A stretch of 52,380 nt of DNA from Gammaproteobacteria bacterium (GCA_051275005.1 JBNMOP010000003.1:1-52380); one strand, 5' to 3'; positions 19,947 to 34,940 are shown, counted from the stretch's first letter. Translations and numbers: made by a program. Notes: generated by a model not told the origin, from the letters alone.

Positions 19947-22844
19947 TTAAGAATAACTATCCATTGGCAAACAACTACAAAACAAATTTTTATCCCCATA
20001 AAGATTATCTATCCGACTCACAGGTGGCCAGTACTTATCATCTCGTGAAGTTTCCAAAGGATAATATGCTTCTCTTTTTGAGTATGGTGACTTCCAGTCA
20101 TCTGCCAACAATAATTGATAGGTATGTGGGGCATTTTTAAGGACATTATCCAATTTATCAGCGTCACCTTTTTCAATAGCTGAAATTTCATTTCGAATAG
20201 CTATCATTGCATCACAAAAGCGATCTATTTCCCGTTTATTTTCACTTTCAGTTGGTTCAATCATCAATGTATCTGCGACTGGAAATGAAACAGTAGGGGC
20301 ATGAAATCCATAATCAATTAAGCGTTTTGCAACATCATCAACCATGATTCCTGTCGTTTCTTTAATCTGACGTAAATCAATTATACACTCATGGGCAACC
20401 ATGCCATTTTTACCGGTATACAGGACTGGATAAAACGACTCTAGGCGCTTGGCTATATAATTGGCATTCAGGATTGCGACCACTGTCGCCCGACGTAATC
20501 CCTTCCCACCCATCATGGCAATGTAAGCCCAGGATATGGTTAATATACTTGCAGACCCCCATGGTGCTGCTGAAACAGCGCCTGTCGTGCCATGCTTGCC
20601 GGCAACCGGATTAACGCCCTGCACTACGGGATGATCTGGCAGATAAGGAGATAGATGTGATTTGACGCCAATAGGTCCCATCCCAGGCCCCCCTCCACCA
20701 TGAGGAATACTAAACGTTTTATGAAGATTTATATGCATCACATCTGCACCAAATTCTGCTGGTTTGCAAATTCCTACAAGTGCATTCATATTAGCGCCAT
20801 CAAGGTAAACCTGACCGCCATGAGCATGGACTATCTGACAAATTTCCTTTACAGAACCTTCGAATACACCATGTGTAGACGGATAAGTAATCATTAATAC
20901 GGAAAGCTGTTCAGAATACTTTTCTGCCTTGGATTTTAAATCTTCCAAATCAATATTTCCGTTTTTATCGCACTTTATAACAACCACATCCAGACCAGCC
21001 ATGGCTGCACTTGCAGGATTAGTCCCATGGGCTGAGGCAGGGATTAAACAAACATTACGGGTCCCTTCACCATTCACTTCCTGATATTTTCGTACAACCA
21101 GTAAACCGGTATATTCACCTTGTGAACCCGCGTTCGGCTGCATAGAAAATGCGTCAAATCCAGACAAGTCGCAAAGCATTTCCTCCAGCTCTGTAATTAA
21201 CTGATGATATCCTTGAGCCTGATCAGATGGAACAAACGGATGGATTGCATTAAATTCCTGATATGAGAGTGCTTGCAATTCAGTAGCAGCATTTAGCTTC
21301 ATTGTACATGAACCTAAAGGAATCATAGCTCGATCAAGTGCGATATCTCTCCGAGCTAACCAACCCATATAACGCATCATTTCAGTTTCGCTATGATATA
21401 AATGAAAAACATCATGCGTTAGAAAGTTGGATTCTCTTAATAAATCTGCTGGTATATTCTCTTCGATGGCATTATCAATTGAGACTAAATCAAGTTCCGC
21501 GCCATGTTTTGCTGAAAAAACTTGCCATAGAGTTATTAAATCTTCTCTGCTAGTAGTTTCATCGAACGCTATTCCTACATGATTAAGATCAATTACTCTG
21601 AGATTAATCTGGAATTTTCGTGCCAAAACGGCCAAATTATTAGCTCGATTTGGAACATGCACTTTAATAGTATCAAAAAATGTTTCGTTTAAAATTTCGA
21701 ACCCAAGTTGTCTAAGTCCGTGAGCAAAAATAAGCATCAATCTGTGTACCCGTCCTGCTATTAATTTTAACGACTCTGGTCCATGATATATTGCATAGAA
21801 ACTGGCGATGACAGCAAGTAGTACCTGCGAAGTACATATGTTACTGGTAGCTTTTTCTCGCCTAATATGTTGTTCTCTTGTTTGCAAGACCATTCTTAAT
21901 GCATGTTTGCCGTATTTATCTTTTGAAACGCCAATGATTCGTCCAGGCATCTGCCTGATAAAATCATTTTTAGTTGCAAAAAATGCTGCATGAGGACCAC
22001 CGAAGCCCATAGAGACTCCAAACCTCTGCGAATTACCCAGAACTATATCAGCGCCCATCTCACCTGGGGGTTTTAACAAGACCAGACTGAGTAAGTCGGT
22101 TGCTACCGTGACTAATGCATCAATTTTATGTGCTTCGATAATTACTGATTCAATATTTTGCACGCTACCGTATGTGCATGGATATTGAATTAACACACCA
22201 AATAAATCCTGGTTATTTATTTCACTGAAGGGGTCTCCAATAATTAATTCAATATCAAAATATCTGGCTCGAGTTTGTACTACTGCAATAGTTTGAGGAT
22301 GACAATTTTTGTCTACAAAATAAATATTACATTCTTTTTTGCTGAGTCGTTTTGACATCGCCATGGCTTCAGCGGCTGCAGTAGCTTCATCAAGTAACGA
22401 TGCGTTTGCTAGCTCCATTCCGGTTAAATCTGTCACCATTTGTTGGAAATTTAGCAATGCCTCAAGTCTTCCTTGACTGATTTCAGCCTGATAGGGTGTA
22501 TAAGCGGAATACCAGGAAGGATTTTCCAGTATATTTCGTTTTATTACAGCAGGCATTAATGTGCCGTAATAACCCATACCAATCATCGTCTTGAATACTT
22601 TATTTTTTTCACACATTGTGCGCAAAATGGATATTACTGCCCTCTCACTTATTGTATCTGTTAGAGACAGCAAGTCTTTTGACAATATTGATTCTGGCAC
22701 AGCCTTGTCGATTATTTCTTCTGCATCATCTATCTCCAGGAAATCACATATTTCTTGAATTTGTTGAGCATTAGAACCAATGTGTCGGCGAATAAAATCA
22801 CCTCGCATTTCGAGCATTTCCAGGGATTTTTTTTCGACTACCAT
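19947..22844 (-). CDS. gcvP: Glycine dehydrogenase (decarboxylating), P protein
   Basis: [50 protein letters not shown]. Confidence 0.98.
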
Positions 22845-22926
22845 GCTAAATTATCCTTAATGGTATAACACTAGTGCTACTAGAGTTATCTCTATAAAAT
22901 AATTGAAAAAATATAAAATTCAATTT

Positions 22927-23304
22927 TCACAATTTTTCAATATATTCGTTATATTCCGACTCACTCATTAAATCATTCAAATCGTCGATGTTATCTGCAG
23001 TCATGCGAATGAACCACCCGTCTCCCATAGGATCAGTATTTACCAGTTCGGGTTCATCGACCAATCGGGAATTAACCTCAATTATTTCACCAGAGAGAGG
23101 AATCTTGACTTCACCAGCAGCCTTAACAGACTCAACAACTGCCATATCTGTGTTTGAAATAAAATTAGCGCCGACTTCAGGTAGTTCTACATAAACAATA
23201 TCTCCTAATTGGTCCTGCGCATATTCAGTTATCCCAACTAAGAGTGTTCCATCATCGTCTTGCCTTAACCATTCATGATCATCTGTGAATTTTTCATTAC
23301 TCAT
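22927..23304 (-). CDS. gcvH: Glycine cleavage system H protein
   Basis: HEW, GITEYAQDQLGDIVYVELP, lipoyl-Lys motif VESVKAA. Confidence 0.97.
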   Translation of the reverse strand: MSNEKFTDDHEWLRQDDDGTLLVGITEYAQDQLGDIVYVELPEVGANFISNTDMAVVESVKAAGEVKIPLSGEIIEVNSRLVDEPELVNTDPMGDGWFIRMTADNIDDLNDLMSESEYNEYIEKL

Positions 23305-23333
23305 AAATTTTTCTCTATACTTATCTTAATTAA

Positions 23334-24458
23334 TTATTTTATGTGATAGCGGTGTTTAACGAATGGCAAACGAACCTGGTCCAAGGTATAGGTCTTATTG
23401 CGGATATTTACCTTGTATCCATCATTATCTTTAGATGTAGTATTTACATATCCCATTGCTATGGGTCCACCTATAGTCTGCCCGTATCCACCGCTACTAA
23501 TTATACCCACTTTTTCGCCGTCACTATCAAATATCATTGATCCTTCTCTAACCAGTATTTTTCCTTCCGGTTTGAATCCTCGACGAATTCTAGAGGGGCC
23601 TTCTGAGATTTGCTGTAGAATATTTTTAGCACCAGGAAAGTTAGCGCGAACAGGATTATCAGAACGATATTTTTTAGCGATTATCCAAATTAGATCTGCT
23701 TCTACAGGTGATATAGATTCGTTTAAATCGTGCCCATATAGACAAAGTCCTGCCTCAAGACGCAAGGAATCTCTTGCACCAAGTCCTGCAGGCATTAGCC
23801 GTTTGTCAGTTAGTAGAATTCTTGCCAATTCCTCAGCTTTTTCTGCTGATACAGAAATTTCAAAACCATCTTCACCGGTATAACCACAACGGTGAATTAA
23901 ACAATCAATCCCAGATAGTCTAAATTGACCTACAGCCAGAAAGGGTAAATCGTCAATTGCAGCCAGATAGGCTGACAGAATTGATACAGCTAATGGTCCT
24001 TGTATCGCTAATAATGCCTTATCTTCCAACATGGAAATATTATTTTTATTGCCTAATGTTGATTGTAAATATTTATAATCATCAAGTTTACCTGCTGCAT
24101 TTACCACTAAAAAAAAACTATCCGGCAATCTGGTTATCATTAAATCATCGATTATGCCGCCAGATTCATTGGTAAATACGGTATATCTTTGGCGGAAGGG
24201 TGGTAAACTTTGAATATCACCTGGTACTAATTTTTCTAGACTAATATCTATATTTTCCCCAGTAATACTTATCTGTCCCATATGAGAAATATCAAAGATA
24301 CTTGCTTTATTTCGCGTATGTTCATGTTCTGCTCGAATGCCGGTGGGATATTGTACTGGCATCTCATATCCAGCAAATGCCACCATTCTTGCATCTAATT
24401 CTTTATGCAATGAATATAACGGAGTCCTATTATCTTCCGCTCTTTGAACCTGGTTCAT
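23334..24458 (-). CDS. gcvT: Glycine cleavage system aminomethyltransferase T
   Basis: FAGYEMPVQY, FDISHMGQ, GYTGEDGFEI, GLGARDSLRLEAGLCLYG. Confidence 0.97.
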   Translation of the reverse strand: MNQVQRAEDNRTPLYSLHKELDARMVAFAGYEMPVQYPTGIRAEHEHTRNKASIFDISHMGQISITGENIDISLEKLVPGDIQSLPPFRQRYTVFTNESGGIIDDLMITRLPDSFFLVVNAAGKLDDYKYLQSTLGNKNNISMLEDKALLAIQGPLAVSILSAYLAAIDDLPFLAVGQFRLSGIDCLIHRCGYTGEDGFEISVSAEKAEELARILLTDKRLMPAGLGARDSLRLEAGLCLYGHDLNESISPVEADLIWIIAKKYRSDNPVRANFPGAKNILQQISEGPSRIRRGFKPEGKILVREGSMIFDSDGEKVGIISSGGYGQTIGGPIAMGYVNTTSKDNDGYKVNIRNKTYTLDQVRLPFVKHRYHIK

Positions 24459-24559: not shown

Positions 24560-25945
24560 ATGACTCAAAAATTACGTATATTGGATTTACTCAACGCAGA
24601 TTATAGCATGCCTGTCATCAAAATTGAGGGATGGGTACGAACTCGCAGAGATTCAAAGGACTTTTCATTTATTGAACTAAATGATGGATCGTGCCTGGCG
24701 AATATACAGGTGATAGCCGACACTGGAATTACAGGTTATGAAAATATACATGAATTCTCAACAGGAAGTTCAATTTCCGTTAAAGGAGAATTAGTTGAAT
24801 CACCTGGAAAAGGACAGAGATGGGAAATAAAAGCACTTGAAATTTCAATTATAGGTTCCGCACCGGATGATTTTCCATTACAAAAAAAGCGTCATTCAGA
24901 TGAGTTTCTACGTAGTATCGCTCATCTGCGCCCAAGGACAAATAAGTATGGAGCAATGTTTCGGATACGGTCCGAAATTTCCATGGCAGTGCATAAATTT
25001 TTTGAGAAAAAAGGTTTTTTCTGGATACATACTCCCATTATTACTGGTTCAGATTGTGAAGGTGCAGGGAATATGTTCCATGTTACAAATCTGGATCTTG
25101 CTAATATTCCAAAGAAAAATGGACAAGTGAATTATAGTGAAGATTTTTTCGGTAAAGAGGCCAATCTTACTGTTTCAGGTCAGCTTTCTCTAGAGGCCTA
25201 TTGTTTAAGTCTTGGAAAGGTTTATACATTTGGTCCAACTTTCCGTTCTGAAAATTCCAATACCAGCCGTCATATTTCTGAATTCTGGATGATAGAGCCT
25301 GAAGTGGCTTTTGCAGATATAGAAGATAATATGCGACTTGGAGAGGAATTGATTCAGTATTTAGTCAATTACGTATTAAACCATTGCATAGATGACATAG
25401 AATTATTTACAAAATTTATAGATAAAACCTTATTTTCAAGACTAGAAAATATTGAGAAAACTGAATTCATAAGACTCTCATATACAGAAGCTATCAATAT
25501 CCTCGAAAAATCTTCGCAAACGTTTGAATATGAACCTGCATGGGGCAAGGATCTACAATCAGAACACGAACGTTACCTTACAGAACATCATTTTAAACAG
25601 CCTGTTATTGTCATAGATTATCCTAAAGAAATAAAAGCATTCTATATGCGGCAAAATGATGACGAGAAAACAGTCGCTGCAATGGATATACTTGTCCCTC
25701 AGATAGGTGAAATTATTGGCGGAAGTCAAAGGGAAGAACGGTACGATAAACTCATTTTACGTTTAAATGAAATGAACTTAAACGCGAAAGATTATTGGTG
25801 GTATTTGGACACTAGAAAATATGGTAGCGCGAAACATTCCGGCTTTGGGCTCGGTCTAGAACGATTCTTAATGCTGGTAACGGGCGCAACCAATATTCGT
25901 GACGTAATTCCCTTCCCGAGAACCCCAAAACATCTGGAATTTTAA
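24560..25945 (+). CDS. asnS: Asparagine--tRNA ligase
   Basis: [64 protein letters not shown]. Confidence 0.97.
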
Positions 25946-25958
25946 TATAACGCTAAAC

Positions 25959-27644
25959 ATGAAAGCATTAACTTACTTGACCAGGCTCGAAAAGCTAAAG
26001 ACAGCATTTGGAATCAATCAAGAAATCAGCAAAGGCAAACTATTAAAAAAACTTCAAAACAGGCGTTTAACCAGCGTTAGTCAAGTAATTCGTTTGCATG
26101 ATGTCTTGTGCTTCATGTATGCATATCCTGATAGCAATGAAAGTTTTCTGACGACAAAATCAATGCTTGATTCATTTTCTAAACGTTCTGATCTTATTGC
26201 ATTTAAAAATAAACTAATAAATTCCGGCATTGCAGGAACAGACATTCATTATCAATTTTTCTGGCCAATGGCTTGCTGGATTGCAGATAACTGGCCTGAG
26301 TTTTTCTATATTTTATGGGACGATATTGAGAACGAAGAAAAATTGTTGAAAATAATTCCATTCATGGTGACTTCATCTGAATCAGGAATTTTTGATGAAT
26401 ATGATTTTGATGCAAAAGAATGGTTAAATAGATTAAAAAATATAAAGGAAACAGAGGCGGAGTTTTTTGTATTACGATTAAAACAAACTTATGCTACTGA
26501 TCTTGAGCGTGAGGCTTTCCATGACGATCTTAATCTGAACTATACGCTGCAATCTTCTCAAACCACTCCTAATATTAGTAACTCAGTCTTTAGTAAAAGT
26601 CGAATAACATTCCATAAAAACGCATTAAACACTAAACGTCCAGCGTTAAAATCTGCTATTAAAAATACTGATTTTAAAGTTAAAACACCGTCTACAAAGG
26701 ATTGTAATTTACTAGTTAGTCTCGCACGTAAAACAATGCTGACTCACGAACGTGATCTCGATTCATTCTCATACGGCAATGCTCGAGATATAAAACTAAT
26801 TGATTTTGATGATGGTTACCAGATTGCATGTATAGGAATGATACCTGAGAGAAGATACCTGCTACACACTACTTATGGTTTTCTAAATATGAAAAATGGT
26901 CTACCTATCGGTTATTTTCAAATTAGCAGCATATTTAACTATGCGGAAGTTGCGTTTAATTTATTTTCACCATTTAGAGGGGCTGAAGCATCACTAATAT
27001 TTACGAGAAACATGTCTGTTGCACATAAAATATTTGACGTAAATTCATTCGTATTAGACCCTTACCAATTAGGTCACGATAATCCAGACGGACTAAAATC
27101 CGGAGTCTGGTGGTTTTATAATAAGCTCGGATTTAAACCGATGAAAGTAAGGATTCAGAAAATTCTTCGGCAAGAATTACAAAAAATGAAAAAAAATAGC
27201 AGCTACCGATCAAACTTAACTATTTTGAACGATCTAGCTTCAGATAATATGTTCTACAATCTAAATGACAATGAAAAAGACTATCATGTTCTCGGGAACA
27301 TTGGTTATGTCTCTATAGCAATATCCCAACACCTTGCATCTAGATATGGAGCGCGTCGCGAATTCGGATTAAATATATGCTTGAAAGATACCCTTGCTAT
27401 AACTGGCACAAAAAATAAATATAATGCAATGATTCAATCTGAAAAAATTGCATGGCAACGTTGGTCTCCTTTAGTCAGCAGTTTAGGCAAAATAAACAAG
27501 TGGACTACCAAGGAAAGAAAACAATTAGGTGAAATAATTAGCGCTAAAGGGCAAGACGATGAACTTGTTTATTTAAAAAAAATAAATAACCATAGAAAAC
27601 TTAAGAATAAAATCCTGTCAACAGCAAACAAACATACTTCTTAA
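25959..27644 (+). CDS. Hypothetical 561-aa protein with a probable cryptic GNAT acyltransferase domain
   Basis: Long ORF starting 13 nt after asnS. NGLPIGY...EVAFNLFSPFRGAEAS resembles GNAT beta3-beta4/motif A; N...GVWWFYNKLGFKP resembles motif B. Confidence 0.6.
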   Translation: MKALTYLTRLEKLKTAFGINQEISKGKLLKKLQNRRLTSVSQVIRLHDVLCFMYAYPDSNESFLTTKSMLDSFSKRSDLIAFKNKLINSGIAGTDIHYQFFWPMACWIADNWPEFFYILWDDIENEEKLLKIIPFMVTSSESGIFDEYDFDAKEWLNRLKNIKETEAEFFVLRLKQTYATDLEREAFHDDLNLNYTLQSSQTTPNISNSVFSKSRITFHKNALNTKRPALKSAIKNTDFKVKTPSTKDCNLLVSLARKTMLTHERDLDSFSYGNARDIKLIDFDDGYQIACIGMIPERRYLLHTTYGFLNMKNGLPIGYFQISSIFNYAEVAFNLFSPFRGAEASLIFTRNMSVAHKIFDVNSFVLDPYQLGHDNPDGLKSGVWWFYNKLGFKPMKVRIQKILRQELQKMKKNSSYRSNLTILNDLASDNMFYNLNDNEKDYHVLGNIGYVSIAISQHLASRYGARREFGLNICLKDTLAITGTKNKYNAMIQSEKIAWQRWSPLVSSLGKINKWTTKERKQLGEIISAKGQDDELVYLKKINNHRKLKNKILSTANKHTS

Positions 27645-27647
27645 TAG

Positions 27648-28676
27648 TCATATCCTTGAAGTTTCTGGGATGTATTTAAGCCCATTGTTGATAATTTTTT
27701 GTAAAAGCTGCTCGTAACTAATGTTAGCTAATTCAGCTGATGTTGATAACTCTTCTTGAAACCCAATATCGGGATTTGCATTCGCTTCTAATACATAAAT
27801 TTTGTTGTCTTCTGTCAAACGAAGATCGATTCGAACATATCCACTTATTCCAAGGATTTTATATATGCGTTTACCTAGTGCGTGTAATCTTTTAATTAAT
27901 TTTTCATCAAGGTTTTTAGCAGCGACTAGATTTATCTTGTGAACTTTTTGATATTGCCAATCCCACTTTACTTTAGAAGTTGCAATATTATGTGCATCAC
28001 TTGGCATGTCTCCAAATTCCAATTCCAACAAAGGTAATGTTTGCAGTCTGCTATTACCGACTATAGATATATATATTTCTCTACCCTCTATAAATTCTTC
28101 GGTAAGAACATGGGTATTTAACTTAGTATGCAAGTAATGCACCCTTTCCAGCAATTTCTCCTTTGTATTAACAACTGAAGCCTGTGATAGACCATAAGAC
28201 CCCTCTTCCACCAATGATTTTACAATTAATGGAAATCGTAATGATTTCGGGATCCTTACTTTAGTGTCGAGTGGAAAAACACAAAAACGAGGAGTATTTA
28301 TTCTATGAAACGTAAAAAGTTTTTTGCTAAGGGCCTTGTCATGCGCAATCATTAAGCCTCGAGGGTTGCAACCTGTATAGGGTAGTTTCATTAGTTCCAG
28401 ATAACTCGCAACATGGTAGTCATATAAGGAGTTACCGTGGAATTCCTCAAGAAGGTTAAAAGCAATATCCGGTTTATATTCATTAATTGCCCTCCTTATA
28501 ACACCTAAATCATCAAATACTCCTACAGGTATTACCTCGTGACCCATACGTTTTAAAGTTGAAACCACATCAAATTCAGTTTTCCATTCGACTATTTCTT
28601 TATCTGAATGACCCTTCTTGGATTCTGGAGGCACAAGATCTTCATGCATTAACACGAGTATTTTGAGATTATTCAT
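27648..28676 (-). CDS. ATP-grasp ligase, D-Ala-D-Ala-ligase-like but non-canonical
   Basis: LPYTG, DKALSK, FPLIVK...GSYG, EEFIEGRE, GYVRIDLR, VLEANANP; lacks the Ddl GGxSxE and HGxxGEDG motifs. Confidence 0.85.
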   Translation of the reverse strand: MNNLKILVLMHEDLVPPESKKGHSDKEIVEWKTEFDVVSTLKRMGHEVIPVGVFDDLGVIRRAINEYKPDIAFNLLEEFHGNSLYDYHVASYLELMKLPYTGCNPRGLMIAHDKALSKKLFTFHRINTPRFCVFPLDTKVRIPKSLRFPLIVKSLVEEGSYGLSQASVVNTKEKLLERVHYLHTKLNTHVLTEEFIEGREIYISIVGNSRLQTLPLLELEFGDMPSDAHNIATSKVKWDWQYQKVHKINLVAAKNLDEKLIKRLHALGKRIYKILGISGYVRIDLRLTEDNKIYVLEANANPDIGFQEELSTSAELANISYEQLLQKIINNGLKYIPETSRI

Positions 28677-29707
28677 ATAGCTATCCTATGACTTATTCGT
28701 TGCCTAAAATTTTGTGTTTGCATGACGATATATATCGCTACATCTATTTTCGCGTCCTCATTAGTCTTATATAGAGAAAGTTTTAATTCTCTACACCTCA
28801 CTATCATATCTTGCAATATTTGTGCGATATCATATGGGTACATGCCGGCACCTCGTGAGCAAATTTCACATAACTCCGAATGATATTTTTTTAAAAAAAT
28901 TGCTGCGGATCCTCGTCTTTTAGTATCATCGTTAAATCTTTTAAATAGACGAATTAATTCACTGTCATATACATGAGGAAGATTCACGCCATAGTGACTT
29001 CTTTTTTGTTGATAGTGTTCTCGTAAGCTTTTATTAATTTTTGAGATTGGATCGACATAACTACGGTTACTATTGATTGGCTTTTTATATTGAATATCTG
29101 CCATTATTTCTTCCACATATACAAGCTTTTTTATGACGGTCCAATCTTCATATTCTTTTCTCCATTGCGATCGTGGTTTTAGCCAAACTGCAAATGTTTC
29201 TGCAAAATCTTCTGCAGGATGACTTTGCGCATACCACCAATCAAGATGCATGACATAATTTTTACTTTTAGGATTTGGCCTATAATACTTTGGATATGGT
29301 TTGTTAAATCTACCAAACAATTGCTTGAATTTTTTGCGTCGGTATAACTGATATGCAGTGCAAATAGCATGCCCCGCTTCATGTCTTAAATATTGCATAC
29401 ATGCTCTATCAGTTCCTCCTTCAACTGCATAAACCTGTTGGGCCTCTAATTTGGTCAGTTTTAGATGCGATAGATAAAAGGGAATGGCAATGCCGGGAAC
29501 AGCATCTGGTGAAAACCATTCGTCCGATAACCAGCAATGCGGTTTAAAATTTATATTACGTTGATCTAACTCATCATGTAACTGCCCAACAAAATATTCC
29601 AATGATGAATCTGCAATATTTATTTTTAAATCTTTAAATCGTAAATCTAATAATTCATCAATACTATAATTTATCCAGAATGGTATCTTTCTTCGCTTTC
29701 TTGCCAT
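28673..29707 (-). CDS. Putative zinc-binding metallopeptidase (zincin)
   Basis: HEAGH zinc motif plus YAQSHPAEDFAETFAVWL; 4-nt overlap with the ATP-grasp gene. Confidence 0.82.
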   Translation of the reverse strand: MARKRRKIPFWINYSIDELLDLRFKDLKINIADSSLEYFVGQLHDELDQRNINFKPHCWLSDEWFSPDAVPGIAIPFYLSHLKLTKLEAQQVYAVEGGTDRACMQYLRHEAGHAICTAYQLYRRKKFKQLFGRFNKPYPKYYRPNPKSKNYVMHLDWWYAQSHPAEDFAETFAVWLKPRSQWRKEYEDWTVIKKLVYVEEIMADIQYKKPINSNRSYVDPISKINKSLREHYQQKRSHYGVNLPHVYDSELIRLFKRFNDDTKRRGSAAIFLKKYHSELCEICSRGAGMYPYDIAQILQDMIVRCRELKLSLYKTNEDAKIDVAIYIVMQTQNFRQRISHRIAI

Positions 29708-29838
29708 CTGATAAGTTTATCTTAGCTTCAGTTAATTGCCAGCTTGATATAGTTACGCATAATATATAAATATTTTTGTCACGCCAGGATGTAAAATACA
29801 GTATATGCATTACAGCAAACTTATAACTATTTCAATTT

Positions 29839-30684
29839 ATGCTTAAAATTAGTGTAATTATCCCAACGTACAATCGTTTAGAGTCTCTATTAAGGGCGCT
29901 GGAATCAGTTCAAAGTCAATCATATCAAGCTACTGAAATTATTGTTATTGATGATGGCTCAACTGATCAAACTGCTGAACATATAAAACGTAATTTTTCT
30001 AATGTAAAATACATATATCAGTCCAACGCAGGTGTTAGTACTGCCAGAAATGCCGGAATTGAACATTCTTCTGGAGATTGGCTGGCATTTTTGGATAGTG
30101 ATGATAAATGGCACAAAGATAAATTAATGCATCAATCAACGCTTTTAGCAAATAATCCAGAATATTTAATTATACATTCAGATGAGATATGGATAAGGAA
30201 TGGAATACGTATAAATCAGAAAAAAAAGCATCAAAAAAAGTCTGGTTATATCTTTCATGATTGTTTGCGTTTATGTGTAATTTCACCATCGTCAGTAATA
30301 ATACATAATTCTATTTTTAAAGATATTGGGTTGTTTAATCAATCTTTACCGGCATGTGAAGATTATGATTTATGGCTAAGAATTTGTTATAAATATCCAG
30401 TTTTATGCGCTAACAGAAATTTGGTCTACAAATATGGTGGGCATAACGATCAACTATCTCAAAAGTATTGGGGGATGGATAGATTTAGAATCAGAGCGCT
30501 AGAAAATATTATTAAATGTGGACAGTTGCAGAATAAAGAACTCCAATTAGCAATTTTAACTATGCATGAAAAAATTAAAATTTATCAGGATGGCGCCATA
30601 AAACGCAATAATCATAAATCTGCCACTGAATTTCAACATTTACTTGAAGAATATCCAATTAAATTAATGGCAACAGAGCAATGA
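29839..30684 (+). CDS. Family 2 glycosyltransferase
   Basis: SVIIPTYNR, IDDGSTD, ARNAGI, FLDSDD, CEDYDLWLR. Confidence 0.92.
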   Translation: MLKISVIIPTYNRLESLLRALESVQSQSYQATEIIVIDDGSTDQTAEHIKRNFSNVKYIYQSNAGVSTARNAGIEHSSGDWLAFLDSDDKWHKDKLMHQSTLLANNPEYLIIHSDEIWIRNGIRINQKKKHQKKSGYIFHDCLRLCVISPSSVIIHNSIFKDIGLFNQSLPACEDYDLWLRICYKYPVLCANRNLVYKYGGHNDQLSQKYWGMDRFRIRALENIIKCGQLQNKELQLAILTMHEKIKIYQDGAIKRNNHKSATEFQHLLEEYPIKLMATEQ

Positions 30685-31511
30685 TTAATTTATTTTGCGC
30701 ATTACCATGCGAAGCCAAGTCGATAATTCATCATTACAAACTTAAGCATCATCCACGTTCATATCTTTACAGTACATATGTAAATAAACAACATTCAATT
30801 TCATTAACTATAACCGGTATAGGTAAACAATGTGCAACGGGAGGAGTCATTCACGCATTCATGTTTTTATCAGCCAGCAAATCTGATGGCTGGATAAACA
30901 TTGGAATTGCAGGGCACTCCACCTTGCAACCAGGCACTCCAATACTAGCAACTAAAATAATTGACGATTCAAGCGGACGATGTTGGTATCCACAAATTGT
31001 TTTCAACAATGAAATCTTGACAGAAACGATTATGACAGTAGATAAGCCTTCGTCTAACTACCAGGAAGATAATGCCATTGATATGGAAGCGTCAGCTTTC
31101 ATTGAATCTGCAAATAAAACCGGATCAATAGAGCTCTCGCATAGTTTGAAAATAATTTCAGACAACAAGAACAATTCTTATAAAAAAATCAACAAAGCAT
31201 ATGTAGATAAGTTAATAAATTCAAATCTGCCTGTTATCGATAAATTAGTTGAAGAAATTACATTACTTACCGAGATATTACAAAAACCTGATGAGATGGA
31301 TGATATGTTCAATAAAATCATTTGTATCAGGCATTTTACTCATAGTGAACAATTAATATTAAAAACATTACTGAGGAGGTGGAATATATTATTTCCAGAC
31401 TCCGTGCCAAAAATTAACATTATTGAAACGTTATTAAGCAGTAAAATTATTCTCAACTATCTCGACGATTTTCTGGATAACGCTATAATAAATTTTGAAG
31501 AAGTAAATTAA
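30681..31511 (+). CDS. Nucleoside phosphorylase / MTA-SAH nucleosidase-fold protein with C-terminal extension
   Basis: ALPCEA, TGIGK, INIGIAG, DMEASAF, KIISDN; ATGA overlap with the GT2 gene. Confidence 0.78.
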   Translation: MINLFCALPCEAKSIIHHYKLKHHPRSYLYSTYVNKQHSISLTITGIGKQCATGGVIHAFMFLSASKSDGWINIGIAGHSTLQPGTPILATKIIDDSSGRCWYPQIVFNNEILTETIMTVDKPSSNYQEDNAIDMEASAFIESANKTGSIELSHSLKIISDNKNNSYKKINKAYVDKLINSNLPVIDKLVEEITLLTEILQKPDEMDDMFNKIICIRHFTHSEQLILKTLLRRWNILFPDSVPKINIIETLLSSKIILNYLDDFLDNAIINFEEVN

Positions 31512-31515
31512 TACA

Positions 31516-32514
31516 ATGTTCAAACATATATATATAGAAGAGAAAGTCAGGTCGCACCCGAGGGCTATCAAGATTTGTGAAAACAATCCTGATGCAAAAA
31601 TTATATATTGTGATAAATATTCTGAAATATTTAATAAAAAATCACAGAATTTCCGTTTGCAAAAATTAAATCCGGCATTAATTCTTGCAAACAAAGAACA
31701 TAATTTTGTATTACCTGCTCCAGGTGAATTCAGTATTGGTGGCGATATAAATTACTATTTTTCACACATGTTAAATTGTCTGTATGACTGCCGTTACTGC
31801 TTTTTACAAGGAATGTATCGTTCTGCAAATTATGTGTTATATGTGAATTACGATGATTTCATACATGAAATTAACAATATTTCCACCAAACACCCTGATA
31901 AAGGAATACATTATTTCTCCGGATACGATTGCGATAGCCTGGTATTTGACCCCATAACAGAATTCACTAAATATTTTATTCCAGCATTTACCAATCTACC
32001 AAATTCACTACTGGAATTACGTACTAAAAGCACACAAATACGGACGTTGCTATCAATGACGCCTGTTCCTAACTGTATAATTGCTTACAGTCTTAATCCT
32101 GATAAAATTGCTAGCGCTTTGGAACACAAGGCCCCTAGTATCAAAAATCGGCTGGTGTCACTGCAAAAATTACAACGACATGGCTGGAATATCGGCTTAC
32201 GATTTGATCCGCTAATTTATGACTCAGATTATAAAAATATTTACAGCAAGTTATTTAAAGATGTTTTTCAGCTGCTTAATATTGATCTTATCCATTCAAT
32301 CAGCATAGGTACATTTCGTTTGCCTAAAACTTATTTTAAAGAATTATCAGAAAAATATCCTGAAGAAAAATTGTTTTCTTCACCCTTAAATGAAAGTCAA
32401 GATATAGTTCAATACAAGCCATCAATACGCACAAATTTGTTAGATTATTGTTACAATGAATTATTAAGCTATGCACCAGAGCATAAAATCTATCCTTGTG
32501 AACCGTTGGTATAA
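31516..32514 (+). CDS. Spore photoproduct lyase-like radical SAM protein
   Basis: NCLYDCRYCFLQ (CxxxCxxC), YVN, DSL, LELRTKS, SLNP, RFDPLI. Confidence 0.85.
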   Translation: MFKHIYIEEKVRSHPRAIKICENNPDAKIIYCDKYSEIFNKKSQNFRLQKLNPALILANKEHNFVLPAPGEFSIGGDINYYFSHMLNCLYDCRYCFLQGMYRSANYVLYVNYDDFIHEINNISTKHPDKGIHYFSGYDCDSLVFDPITEFTKYFIPAFTNLPNSLLELRTKSTQIRTLLSMTPVPNCIIAYSLNPDKIASALEHKAPSIKNRLVSLQKLQRHGWNIGLRFDPLIYDSDYKNIYSKLFKDVFQLLNIDLIHSISIGTFRLPKTYFKELSEKYPEEKLFSSPLNESQDIVQYKPSIRTNLLDYCYNELLSYAPEHKIYPCEPLV

Positions 32515-32670: not shown

Positions 32671-33930
32671 TTGAATACAGAAACTGATAATTACTCAACA
32701 TTAGATAAACACAAAATTGATGCGCTAATAAGCCAGGCTCAAGTTGCAATATCTATGGGGACTGTCGCGGCATTATTTATATTTATTGTTTACTGGAACT
32801 CATCCATAAGATTTGCCATAACTATCTGGTTCGGTATATATCTATTAATATATATTCTAAGATATTTTATAGTAAAAAGATTTAACGCTTCGCAGCAAGA
32901 CAAGCAAAATTATATCCTTATCATGCGTTTTCATATTATAAGTTCTGTAGTTGCTGGATTATTATGGTCTGCTATCTGTATTTATTTATTTTATGTTTAT
33001 AACACAGTTGAAAGCCTCTATGTCCTACTAGTTCTTGGTGGATTGGTAGCAGGAGCAGTCGCCACAAATATAATTTTAATGTCGGTGTATTACTCGTTTG
33101 TTTTGCCTGCAACATTACCAATTATAATATTTTTATTGACTCACAACAGCAACCAAATGAACGTGTCGGGAATTATTTTGTTACTATTCGTAATATTTAT
33201 CACTTCCTGTGCATACAGATTAAACAAACTCGTATCAGATTCACTTTCTTATCAATTTGATAATTTACAATTATTAGATGACCTGGAAAAAGAAAAAATT
33301 CAAGTCACTCGTTTGTATTCTAATCTAGAGTCTAACCTAGCAAAGCGCAAAAAAGCAGAAAAACAACTAATACTTGAAAAAGAGAAAGCAGAGGATTTAG
33401 TCAAGTCATTGTTGGCTATTTCTACTCTGGATGGCCTCACAGGAATACCGAATCGTAGACATTTTGATTCAATATTAGCTAAAGAATGGAATCGTGCAAG
33501 CCGTAGCAAAACATCAATATCACTAATCATGTGTGATATCGATTATTTCAAACCATACAACGATCACTATGGACATCAAAAAGGTGATAATTGTCTAATA
33601 CAGGTTGCTATCATGCTACAGGAACTTGCTCGTCGAGATGATGATATGGCTGCAAGATATGGAGGCGAAGAATTTGCAGTAATTTTGCCAACCACAACAA
33701 TTGATAACGCTAAAGATATCGCTGAGCAAATGCGTTTAGCTATACAAGAAACATGTATACCGCATAAATATTCACTTACTGACAATATAATAACAGTGAG
33801 CTTTGGTGTAGCGACTGTCATCCCTCAACGCGAACAATCATCTACTATACTTGTATCATTTGCAGATAAGGCATTATATAAAGCAAAACAACTTGGCCGT
33901 AACCGCGTAGTTGATTATTTGCATGAGTGA
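32671..33930 (+). CDS. Membrane-bound diguanylate cyclase
   Basis: About 6-7 TM helices, coiled coil, DGLTGIPNRR, DIDYFKPYND.YGH, RxxD I-site (RDDD), RYGGEEF. Confidence 0.93.
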   Translation: MNTETDNYSTLDKHKIDALISQAQVAISMGTVAALFIFIVYWNSSIRFAITIWFGIYLLIYILRYFIVKRFNASQQDKQNYILIMRFHIISSVVAGLLWSAICIYLFYVYNTVESLYVLLVLGGLVAGAVATNIILMSVYYSFVLPATLPIIIFLLTHNSNQMNVSGIILLLFVIFITSCAYRLNKLVSDSLSYQFDNLQLLDDLEKEKIQVTRLYSNLESNLAKRKKAEKQLILEKEKAEDLVKSLLAISTLDGLTGIPNRRHFDSILAKEWNRASRSKTSISLIMCDIDYFKPYNDHYGHQKGDNCLIQVAIMLQELARRDDDMAARYGGEEFAVILPTTTIDNAKDIAEQMRLAIQETCIPHKYSLTDNIITVSFGVATVIPQREQSSTILVSFADKALYKAKQLGRNRVVDYLHE

Positions 33931-34783
33931 ATCATGCAAATAATAATTATACTGATACATATTTTGTTTATTATACAGCCGGATCGAATACTGTCATATA
34001 AGTAAAATGACACGTAGTAGGACTTCATAATCTCACAATTTTCTTTAAATTAAGTATAGCAAAAATTTTCCTTGTGATGGGACAGGCACAACTTAGCTAT
34101 GGTAGCGCCTCCCCTGGGTCTATTCATGTTAGTCTGTTAACTGTGAGTGAGATAAAAGGTAACCACATACCAGCGCGGTATCGTAAAGTAATCTACACCC
34201 TGCTCTCCCTGAACAAATAAAGTTTCTGCCTCATCATCGGCTCAATTTATGGGTGATTAATTTTAGCGAAAAATATTGTCCTACCTACTGTGATTTCATC
34301 TTAAACAAATTCTGGCATTACAAAATCAGATTAATTTGCACCAAGACCCATACATGCATGTGGCATTGCAATGGCTGATATTCACGTATCAATATCAAGG
34401 GTACTAACGCCATTTCTGGCAGTGTACATCTGTATCACATATGATTTTTCTTTGCTTTTATGGACAGCCTCAGTGTTATAAAAGATAGGCTTTACAATAG
34501 TTTATAATTCAATTTTTGCGTGCTAGATGAAATACTAAACTGTTCAATTTTCACCGTCTCCAGCCACTTCTTAATCTGGCTTTTATATAGTGGGAGATTA
34601 ACCTTTTTGAATATGAACTCTAAAAGCTGGATCTATTCTGGATCAGTTGTTACGTGGCGCGTATCTGATACAAACAAAATACAAAAGACCAGGCAACACG
34701 TTACTGACATCTAGTATTGCAAAAATGTCTACAAAGCCAAATATTTTTGCTAGACTGTGCCAACTGCTCTATTTATTGGGGCA

Positions 34784-34870
34784 CTACCTAAGGGGCGGCT
34801 TTAAAGCCTGAGACATCAAGACGATGAACCCTGAGAACCTGATCCGGATAATGCCGGCGTAGGGATAGGA
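34784..34870 (+). ncRNA. TPP riboswitch
   Basis: CCTA-AGGGG...CTGAGA...ACCC..GAACCTGATCCGGATAATGCCGGCGTAGGGA-TAGG matches the THI-box consensus with P1 CCTA/TAGG; lies upstream of thiamine uptake genes. Confidence 0.95.
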
Positions 34871-34940
34871 CTAAATTGTTACTTTTTTGTTCTTTCATAC
34901 GCTCCGGATCTCATTTAGTGACATTGATTCTGGAGGCTTT

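Follow-up and report, generated by a model that had tools for sequence, protein, structure and literature searches.

This study concerns two overlapping genes, encoding a predicted zinc metallopeptidase (zincin) and an ATP-grasp ligase resembling D-alanine--D-alanine ligase (Ddl), in a stretch of 52,380 nucleotides (nt) from a Gammaproteobacteria bacterium (GCA_051275005.1, JBNMOP010000003.1:1-52380), hereafter the window. Four genes lie close together there. On the plus strand, asnS (24560-25945, 461 aa), an asparagine--tRNA ligase gene that scores 675.7 bits with NF003037 against a cut-off of 414, is followed after 13 nt by an open reading frame (ORF) of 561 codons (25959-27644), whose basic product has a GCN5-related N-acetyltransferase (GNAT)-fold core between helical domains. 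On the minus strand, the zincin gene (28673-29707, 344 aa, with the motif LRHEAGHAI) is the first and the ligase gene (27648-28676, 342 aa) the second of a two-gene operon. The stop codon of the zincin gene and the start codon of the ligase gene share the 4-nt overlap ATGA (28673-28676), indicating translational coupling of the two, and the convergent stops of the ligase and 561-aa genes are 3 nt apart. An initial annotation of the window had joined zincin, ligase and 561-aa protein into one peptide-tagging or peptide-synthesis system next to asnS; its gene coordinates, the overlap and both gaps were all correct when compared with the ORF list and the raw sequence. As set out below, asnS is a housekeeping neighbour and the 561-aa ORF likewise a neighbour only, and the operon is best considered on its own.

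Upstream of the zincin gene, a divergent intergenic region of 131 nt (29708-29838) separates it from a glycosyltransferase gene and presumably holds the promoter of the zincin-ligase operon. Promoter-like hexamer pairs were found in this region on the plus strand only (29736-29765), its coordinates leave no space for a precursor-peptide gene, and an Rfam scan returned no family near the operon. No RNA sequencing run is listed as holding the stretch; four DNA runs labelled as ice metagenome hold it or part of it, three of them with 78-95% of the sampled words, and the source sample may be among these three.

The ligase is related to the D-Ala-D-Ala ligases, and several lines of evidence separate it from them. 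It matches PF07478 (Dala_Dala_lig_C) with 86.7 bits against a cut-off of 24, and the Ddl/Van family is its top-scoring family in both NCBIfam and the PDB, accounting for 34 of 34 PDB sequence matches. Every NCBIfam Ddl/Van model is nevertheless failed, the best being NF002378 (132.7 against a cut-off of 243), with TIGR01205 at 111.4 against 245.65. The same genome has five PF07478 matches, the best of which (190.5 bits, contig C23) is a canonical ddl gene placed between murC-like and ftsQ-like genes and downstream of four Mur-ligase genes; over 306 residues its product shares 48% identity with E. coli DdlB, as against 25% for the window ligase. The statement of the initial annotation that no mur or fts genes are nearby holds within the tests made: none of the genome's seven Mur_ligase_M matches lies on the window's contig, and neither E. 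coli MurC (C-terminal part) nor E. coli FtsQ gave a tblastn match within the window.

The substrate pocket of the ligase is where it departs most clearly from Ddl. We aligned the window ligase with 38 family members taken from the loci described below, the genome's own Ddl and E. coli DdlB, and repeated the alignment with improved placement of the lid loop; positions compared with DdlB carry its numbering, and residue roles follow the literature on structure 2DLN. Residues K97, K144, E180, E187, K215, R255, D257, E270 and N272, which serve ATP and magnesium binding and catalysis, are all retained in the window ligase and the 40 aligned members of its family. The residues that hold the two D-alanines are replaced, the window ligase carrying E15K, S150G, Y216W, G276D, S281E and L282E. 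In the family as a whole, the triad of the first D-Ala site and lid has mostly K in place of E15, G or A in place of S150 and mostly W in place of Y216, and in the loop at the carboxylate of the second D-Ala, G276 is D, N or Q, S281 is E, and L282 is E or D. The loop after N272 aligns without gaps (ANPDIGFQEEL in the ligase against TSPGMTSHSLV), the lid tryptophans W238 and W240 are invariant in the family, and neither the lid loop nor any of the three domains has been lost. The genome's own Ddl is identical to DdlB at every retained and changed position examined.

With the catalytic residues kept and the D-Ala pocket residues changed, the ligase is predicted to be active but not on two D-alanines. 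E15, which in DdlB holds the amino group of the first D-Ala, is lost, and this suggests that the carboxylate donor has no free alpha-ammonium group; the acidic loop residues, together with the invariant W238 and W240, suggest a cationic amine as the second substrate. The ligase should descend from a D-Ala-D-Ala ligase and still form amide bonds with ATP, with its substrate pocket rebuilt. That it might simply make D-Ala-D-Ala, an outcome which the initial annotation had recognized as damaging to its proposal, is contradicted by the Ddl scores, the pocket and the separate canonical ddl gene. Databases name members of this subfamily 'D-alanine--D-alanine ligase' or 'ATP-grasp domain-containing protein', and the first of these is very likely the wrong name. 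We hold both the two-gene architecture and the statement that the ligase is not a Ddl with high confidence.

The zincin is named 'hypothetical' or 'putative zinc-binding metallopeptidase' in databases. It matches PF15887 (Peptidase_Mx) with 35.7 bits against a cut-off of 27, over profile positions 84-165 only (82 of 236). Across 15 sequences ranging from Gammaproteobacteria to Planctomycetes, H109, E110 and H113 of its HEAGH motif are invariant, as are Y159 and E166, which stand 7 residues apart. This spacing equals the Tyr-x6-Glu spacing of M34 enzymes, and on the basis of spacing rather than superposition Y159 is the candidate catalytic Tyr and E166 the candidate third zinc ligand. Mean column identity is 68% for the zincin in these sequences; for the ligase it is 75%.

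An AlphaFold2 (AF2) model of the zincin, built on the cluster representative P0076, which differs from the window protein at 1 residue, had a predicted local distance difference test (pLDDT) score of 81.4. In VIA-align its best match was the catalytic domain of anthrax lethal factor (Z 9.8, root-mean-square deviation 3.2, 137 residues aligned), followed by PPEP-3 (Z 8.1) and the Peptidase_Mx structure 4l7a (Z 6.3), with the next unrelated rows at about Z 5; Foldseek gave no significant match (E at least 0.28). On this model, residues ~30-210 are an M34-like gluzincin domain, and residues ~260-344 form a helical C-terminal domain with unspecific structural matches only. A search of PDB sequences with the zincin, alone or as a profile, found no relative of solved structure, the one match being a designed protein at E 0.21, and in the ESM Atlas only Peptidase_Mx clusters were retrieved. 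The zincin resembles lethal factor, PPEP-1, PPEP-2 and PPEP-3 of M34 and the Peptidase_Mx structure 4L7A in its HExxH motif, in a downstream Tyr and Glu that may be counterparts of theirs and in having these as its best folds; it differs from them in lacking detectable sequence similarity to solved structures, in its apparently cytosolic location without a signal peptide, in its added C-terminal helical domain and in its pairing with a ligase. The protein is strongly basic (median isoelectric point, pI, 9.5). Neither zincin nor ligase has an N-terminal hydrophobic stretch, and the unit is therefore expected to be cytosolic. A separate observation concerns a larger relative in genome G592, where a frame of 631 codons (L218 1624-3516, plus strand) has its Peptidase_Mx region at residues 375-453, preceded by a long N-terminal extension that matches no Pfam family, and no ligase adjoins it.

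The association of zincin and ligase was examined in 61 relatives of the window's genome and in 80 metagenome loci holding the zincin. A strong zincin match (E up to 8e-81) occurs in 16 of the 61 relatives, or 15 of 60 when the window's own genome is set aside, and every one of the 16 is followed immediately by the ligase on the same strand; in 12 of them the zincin match ends no more than 3 nt from where the ligase match begins. Orthologues of the ligase are present in 17 of the 61, the same 16 and G033. Among the metagenome loci, the ligase lies downstream in 61 of the 61 that have at least 900 nt there; an automatic filter scored 57 of 61, the remaining four failing only through stop-to-stop ORFs that run upstream. 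What is observed is a translationally coupled unit of zincin and ligase whose members strictly co-occur. No zincin-ligase fusion was found among the best 150 of 2763 representatives (187-459 aa long), and complex prediction for the two proteins scored 0.00 in both runs, which carries no weight for or against contact.

No third partner of the pair emerged. Once the 80 metagenome loci had been grouped into 35 lineages at 75% zincin identity, no neighbour family was present in more than four lineages. HhH-GPD (20 loci), NlpC/P60 (18), CxxCxxCC (16) and a deoxyhypusine-synthase homologue (14) had appeared as candidate partners by count of loci and were all lost after lineage grouping. A PADLOC search gave no match for the zincin, the ligase or the 561-aa protein, and the PHROGs collection yielded a single sub-threshold match (E 0.009).

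The pair is widespread. Counted in a library clustered at 50% identity, representatives of the zincin family number 2763 at E up to 1e-3, 1992 at 1e-10 and 929 at 1e-30, and a homologue is absent from the plasmid collection. An even sampling of 400 other genomes from the window's phylum yielded the zincin in 3, all of one genus. The phyla of G456 and G464 each gave 28 holders among 121 genomes, counts that include the centre genome in both cases and G492 in the first. Excluding the centre genome, the background is 27 of 120 in each of these two phyla, or about 23%. The pair occurs in about a quarter of the genomes sampled from the Acidobacteriota-type and Planctomycetota phyla, and its identity between Gammaproteobacteria and Planctomycetes is 50-60%; the zincin of one cultured Planctomycete (P0187) is 53% identical.

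In genomes of these latter types with several zincin copies, 9 of the 11 copies scoring at least 240 bits have a ligase of their own beside them. A second, diverged type of zincin-ligase pair is present at L202, L205, L207, L209 and L211 (genomes G525, G509, G524, G551 and G513, respectively), all in genomes that also hold the main type; in its pocket, G276 is replaced by Y or W, S281 is S or A, and L282 is E. This suggests that zincin and ligase diversified together, as pairs of distinct specificity. At L211, next to a weaker zincin copy, the order is reversed and the ligase lies upstream.

Our favoured reading, to which we lean with modest confidence, is that the zincin-ligase operon is self-contained and makes and breaks an amide bond, in a cycle of addition and removal at a C-terminus. 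Since the two genes are coupled and the ligase is not the housekeeping D-Ala-D-Ala ligase, it is still fair to read them as making and breaking such a bond between them. The ligase would activate, by phosphorylation, a carboxylate without a free alpha-amino group, most likely the C-terminus of a peptide or protein, and would join it to a positively charged amine, for example a basic amino acid or a polyamine. The zincin, as an active M34-like metallopeptidase, would cut the same linkage as an eraser or prepare the acceptor end, and the two proteins may be in physical contact. Whether the acceptor is a peptide or protein, or the product a free small molecule, are alternatives that we regard as comparably plausible, neither reaching an even chance; our commitment to the C-terminal cycle is a narrow one.

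Several observations weigh against this reading. The fold matches of the zincin are middling (Z 9.8 and 8.1, with Foldseek E at least 0.28), and the roles given to its Tyr and Glu follow from the M34 spacing, not from a superposition. The proposal of a cationic amine depends on an alignment that maps the side chains, not on a modelled ligase structure. The close relatives of the ligase that have been characterized (Ddl, Van) all join small molecules, and the three-domain build with its lid loop is kept, which favours a free small-molecule product. Genome G033, a single contig that is 98% complete, has the ligase and no zincin, either in the locus or elsewhere in the genome; it keeps the window's order of glycosyltransferase gene, ligase, 561-aa gene and asnS (L190 1-520), with ~190 nt between glycosyltransferase gene and ligase where the zincin gene would be. 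The zincins at L203 and L212 conversely have no ligase, and their neighbours are unrelated genes that include no alternative ligase. Given this solitary ligase and these solitary zincins, the partnership is not obligate. Finally, in a distant lineage (L056), the pair and the 561-aa gene do lie within 10 kb of each other, slightly above chance expectation.

The strongest alternative, which we rate as possible though short of probable, is a small-molecule module. The product of the ligase would then be a free dipeptide, an amide of a polyamine or amino acid, or a short homopolymer, for instance a compatible solute or storage compound, which the zincin would turn over, no protein being tagged. 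All 34 of the ligase's solved relatives by sequence are small-molecule ligases of Ddl/Van type, its retained lid loop and domains fit such a product, and G033 has kept the ligase by itself. Paralogues with varied pockets are usual for amino-acid ligases of varied specificity, and several paralogous pairs with differing pocket residues do occur within single genomes. Against this, and in favour of a peptide or protein acceptor, the nearest folds of the zincin are endopeptidases that act on proteins, the zincin has a size of 344 aa with an additional helical domain and is strongly basic, sequence constraint on the pair is unusually high across phyla, and no transporter or further biosynthetic gene is conserved beside it.

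Cycles of ligation and hydrolysis are known from tubulin tyrosine ligase and vasohibin, RimK and RimB, glutathionylspermidine synthetase and amidase, and VanA and VanX. The proposed activity shares with these an ATP-dependent carboxylate-amine ligase and a hydrolase for the same type of bond, and differs in the clade of the ligase and the fold of the peptidase; the resemblance is one of logic only, not of membership. To our knowledge, none of these cycles pairs a Ddl-like ligase with an M34-like zincin. A literature search, covering its sources in part, returned no description of such a pair, which does not establish its absence from print, and in PMC4431377 peptidase- and D-Ala-related terms matched in the reference list only. 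The logic of a ligase joined to a hydrolase is known; this zincin-ligase pair is real, widespread and uncharacterised.

Among these known systems, VanA and VanX offer a plan on which the pair could act on the cell wall, the ligase making an alternative D-Ala-D-X and the zincin destroying the normal dipeptide or trimming stem peptides. The ligase does share with the DdlA/DdlB/VanA family its ATP-grasp fold, the Dala_Dala_lig_C domain and the ATP, magnesium and catalytic residues, Ddl/Van is its nearest sequence family, an operon of a cytosolic ligase and a zinc peptidase fits van logic, and an NlpC/P60 gene lies downstream in 18 metagenome loci. The ligase differs from that family, however, in scoring under all Ddl/Van cut-offs, in its replaced pocket, in its position outside the dcw cluster and in its coupling to a zincin. 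Both sets of residues that hold D-Ala are replaced, with acidic side chains at the site of the dipeptide carboxylate; mur, van and regulator genes are not linked to the pair; NlpC/P60 is not among the neighbour families that span lineages, none of which exceeds 4 of 35; and the zincin fold is M34-like, not VanX-like. A cell-wall role is, in our judgement, very improbable.

The remaining question is whether the 561-aa gene and asnS belong with the pair, as the initial annotation had supposed. Linkage across phyla was counted at a distance of 10 kb in the best 80 of at least 583 loci with the 561-aa family. Ligase and zincin lie within that distance in one of the 80, the distant L056, where genes for a GH97 glycosidase, a chemoreceptor (methyl-accepting chemotaxis protein, MCP) and a ferritin-like protein, three unrelated genes, intervene between the pair and the 561-aa gene; asnS lies near the 561-aa gene in one of the 80 (L008), a locus from the window's own genus. 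Conversely, neither the 561-aa gene nor asnS was found at any of the 80 metagenome loci holding the pair (0/80). The 561-aa gene itself has no conserved neighbour, no family being present in more than 8 of its 80 loci and those 8 representing one related group. In 13 genomes of other phyla that hold the 561-aa gene, a zincin is present anywhere in 4, which is not above the background of about 23% given earlier for two phyla (27 of 120 in each). Adjacency and co-occurrence of the three families across phyla find no support in these counts, and elsewhere the 561-aa protein is unlinked to the pair.

Among the 61 relatives, presence of the 561-aa gene and of the pair is similarly decoupled. The gene occurs in 10 of the 61: it adjoins the pair in G000, G005 and G006 and the zincin-less ligase in G033; gene and pair are on different contigs in G001 and G017; and the gene occurs without the pair in G003, G008 and G024, of which the last two were counted against a common system. 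In G002, a genome of the window's genus (L197/L199), the gene is a pseudogene beside an intact pair (G002:C3 ~715354-716664), with nine stops (1 TGA, 2 TAG, 6 TAA). The 561-aa gene is missing from ten of the 16 relatives with the pair, and only in the window's genus and one genus next to it is the gene linked to the pair. It comes after asnS in seven genomes of the window's family (G000, G001, G003, G005, G006, G008 and G033), and in G032 asnS comes directly after the ligase, with no 561-aa gene found between. Adjacency of asnS and the 561-aa gene is the synteny of a single lineage and does not reflect independent events, and both genes are bystanders placed by lineage-specific synteny.

A single system of zincin, ligase and GNAT-like protein for peptide tagging or synthesis, possibly with Asn-tRNA, is already close to refuted by these counts, by the pseudogene and by the single GNAT domain described below, despite the tight gene packing in the window, the same order in G005, G006 and G033 (and in G002 with its pseudogene), the seven genomes with asnS before the 561-aa gene, the GNAT fold and basic character of the protein, and the distant locus L056 with all three genes within 10 kb. 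Of the original interpretation, the coupled pair and a ligase other than the housekeeping Ddl have stood; membership of the GNAT-like protein has not, nor has the use of Asn-tRNA, for which nothing speaks and to which the asnS adjacency, confined to the window's lineage, lends no support. The trio with Asn-tRNA is thereby removed as a false lead. Graspetide (microviridin-type) clusters combine an ATP-grasp ligase, a GNAT and a peptidase, the same three kinds of protein; the present locus differs from them in having no precursor-peptide gene, in a ligase that is Ddl-like and not MdnB/C-like, and in a GNAT-fold gene that is unlinked to the pair.

The 561-aa protein is of interest in its own right. 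It has no Pfam or NCBIfam family, and against PDB sequences, alone or as a profile, nothing was found at E up to 1. Its 75 relatives in the protein collection include none with a Pfam domain or a functional name, the ESM Atlas holds it in clusters of hypothetical proteins only, and the confirmed loci in species-representative genomes, at least 583, are spread over many phyla. The description 'GNAT-like' holds at the level of the fold and finds no counterpart in sequence families (Pfam, NCBIfam, PDB profile). In a confident AF2 model (pLDDT 93.0, predicted template modelling score 0.92), a GNAT-fold core at residues ~251-439 is flanked by helical domains at both termini, with ~250 helical residues before the core and ~120 after it. 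Foldseek related the core to SpeG and other GNATs with a probability of 0.97-1.00 (E 0.01-0.05), and VIA-align gave GNAT matches of Z 7.4 (125 aligned) and Z 7.3 (130 aligned).

The sequence of this family agrees with the GNAT superfamily in part. A WWFYxKLGF stretch is invariant, and its FYxKLGF portion resembles GNAT motif B. The acyl-CoA-binding loop of GNATs has the form Q/R-x-x-G-x-G/A. In the alignment, the 561-aa family has there the stretch YQLGHxNxEGLxSG with invariant Q370, G372, N375 and G382, which departs from the canonical spacing, and the protein differs from the superfamily in matching no GNAT model and in lacking an evident canonical loop. Its model contains a single beta-sheet core (residues ~273-366) flanked by helices, and is otherwise helical. 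Fem-type tRNA-dependent transferases have two tandem GNAT domains, and the 561-aa protein, with a single one and with no conserved linkage to an aminoacyl-tRNA synthetase gene, does not fit the Fem type. The family is basic (median pI 9.4), and RNA-binding proteins are often basic. The most that can be said from the model is that the protein is a putative acyl-CoA-dependent acyltransferase, its substrate possibly anionic; the family might represent a new class of basic acyltransferases with a GNAT fold whose target is RNA or tRNA. Between species of the window's genus, identity is 43-49% for the 561-aa protein, 69-71% for the zincin and 74-81% for the ligase, suggesting that the 561-aa gene has either changed far more rapidly than the genes beside it or been exchanged through transfer.

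Elsewhere in the window, three tightly packed genes run divergently from the zincin gene on the plus strand (29839-32514). The first encodes a family-2 glycosyltransferase (GT2; PF00535, 115.2 bits); the others are a PNP_UDP_1/nucleosidase-like gene, whose weak match of 24.4 bits falls slightly short of the 25.1 cut-off, and a radical S-adenosylmethionine (radical-SAM) gene that belongs to the spore-photoproduct-lyase family (PF20903, 62.5 bits). Next to the pair, both the GT2 and the nucleosidase-like gene recur in three genomes from the same genus (L087, L088 and L090), and the GT2 gene recurs in G033 as well; among the 80 metagenome loci with the pair, GT2 was present in one and the nucleosidase-like and radical-SAM genes in none. 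Further along are a gene for a membrane-anchored GGDEF diguanylate cyclase (32671-33930) and, on the plus strand, a thiamine pyrophosphate (TPP) riboswitch (34781-34882; RF00059, 78.3 bits against a gathering threshold of 54.3), the only Rfam match in the window. On the other side, a glycine-cleavage operon, gcvT-gcvH-gcvP (19947-24458, minus strand; PF01571, PF01597 and PF02347), is divergent from asnS.

Altogether, this study separates a widespread zincin-ligase operon from the neighbours with which it had been grouped and leaves the 561-aa GNAT-fold family as a second uncharacterised orphan, without a Pfam model, that merits separate study. The pair may, at its most far-reaching and with considerable doubt on our part, represent an undescribed bacterial cycle that adds a residue or amine to, and removes it from, a conserved cellular protein or peptide; in such a cycle the ligase would attach a basic amino acid or polyamine to a carboxylate, either at the C-terminus or in a side chain, and the M34-like zincin would remove it again. 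If true, this would make the pair a prokaryotic counterpart of the tubulin tyrosination cycle. The very likely misnaming of the ligase bears on cell-wall annotation in phyla whose peptidoglycan has been debated, and knowledge of its substrate would bring to light a new metabolite or else a new post-translational modification.

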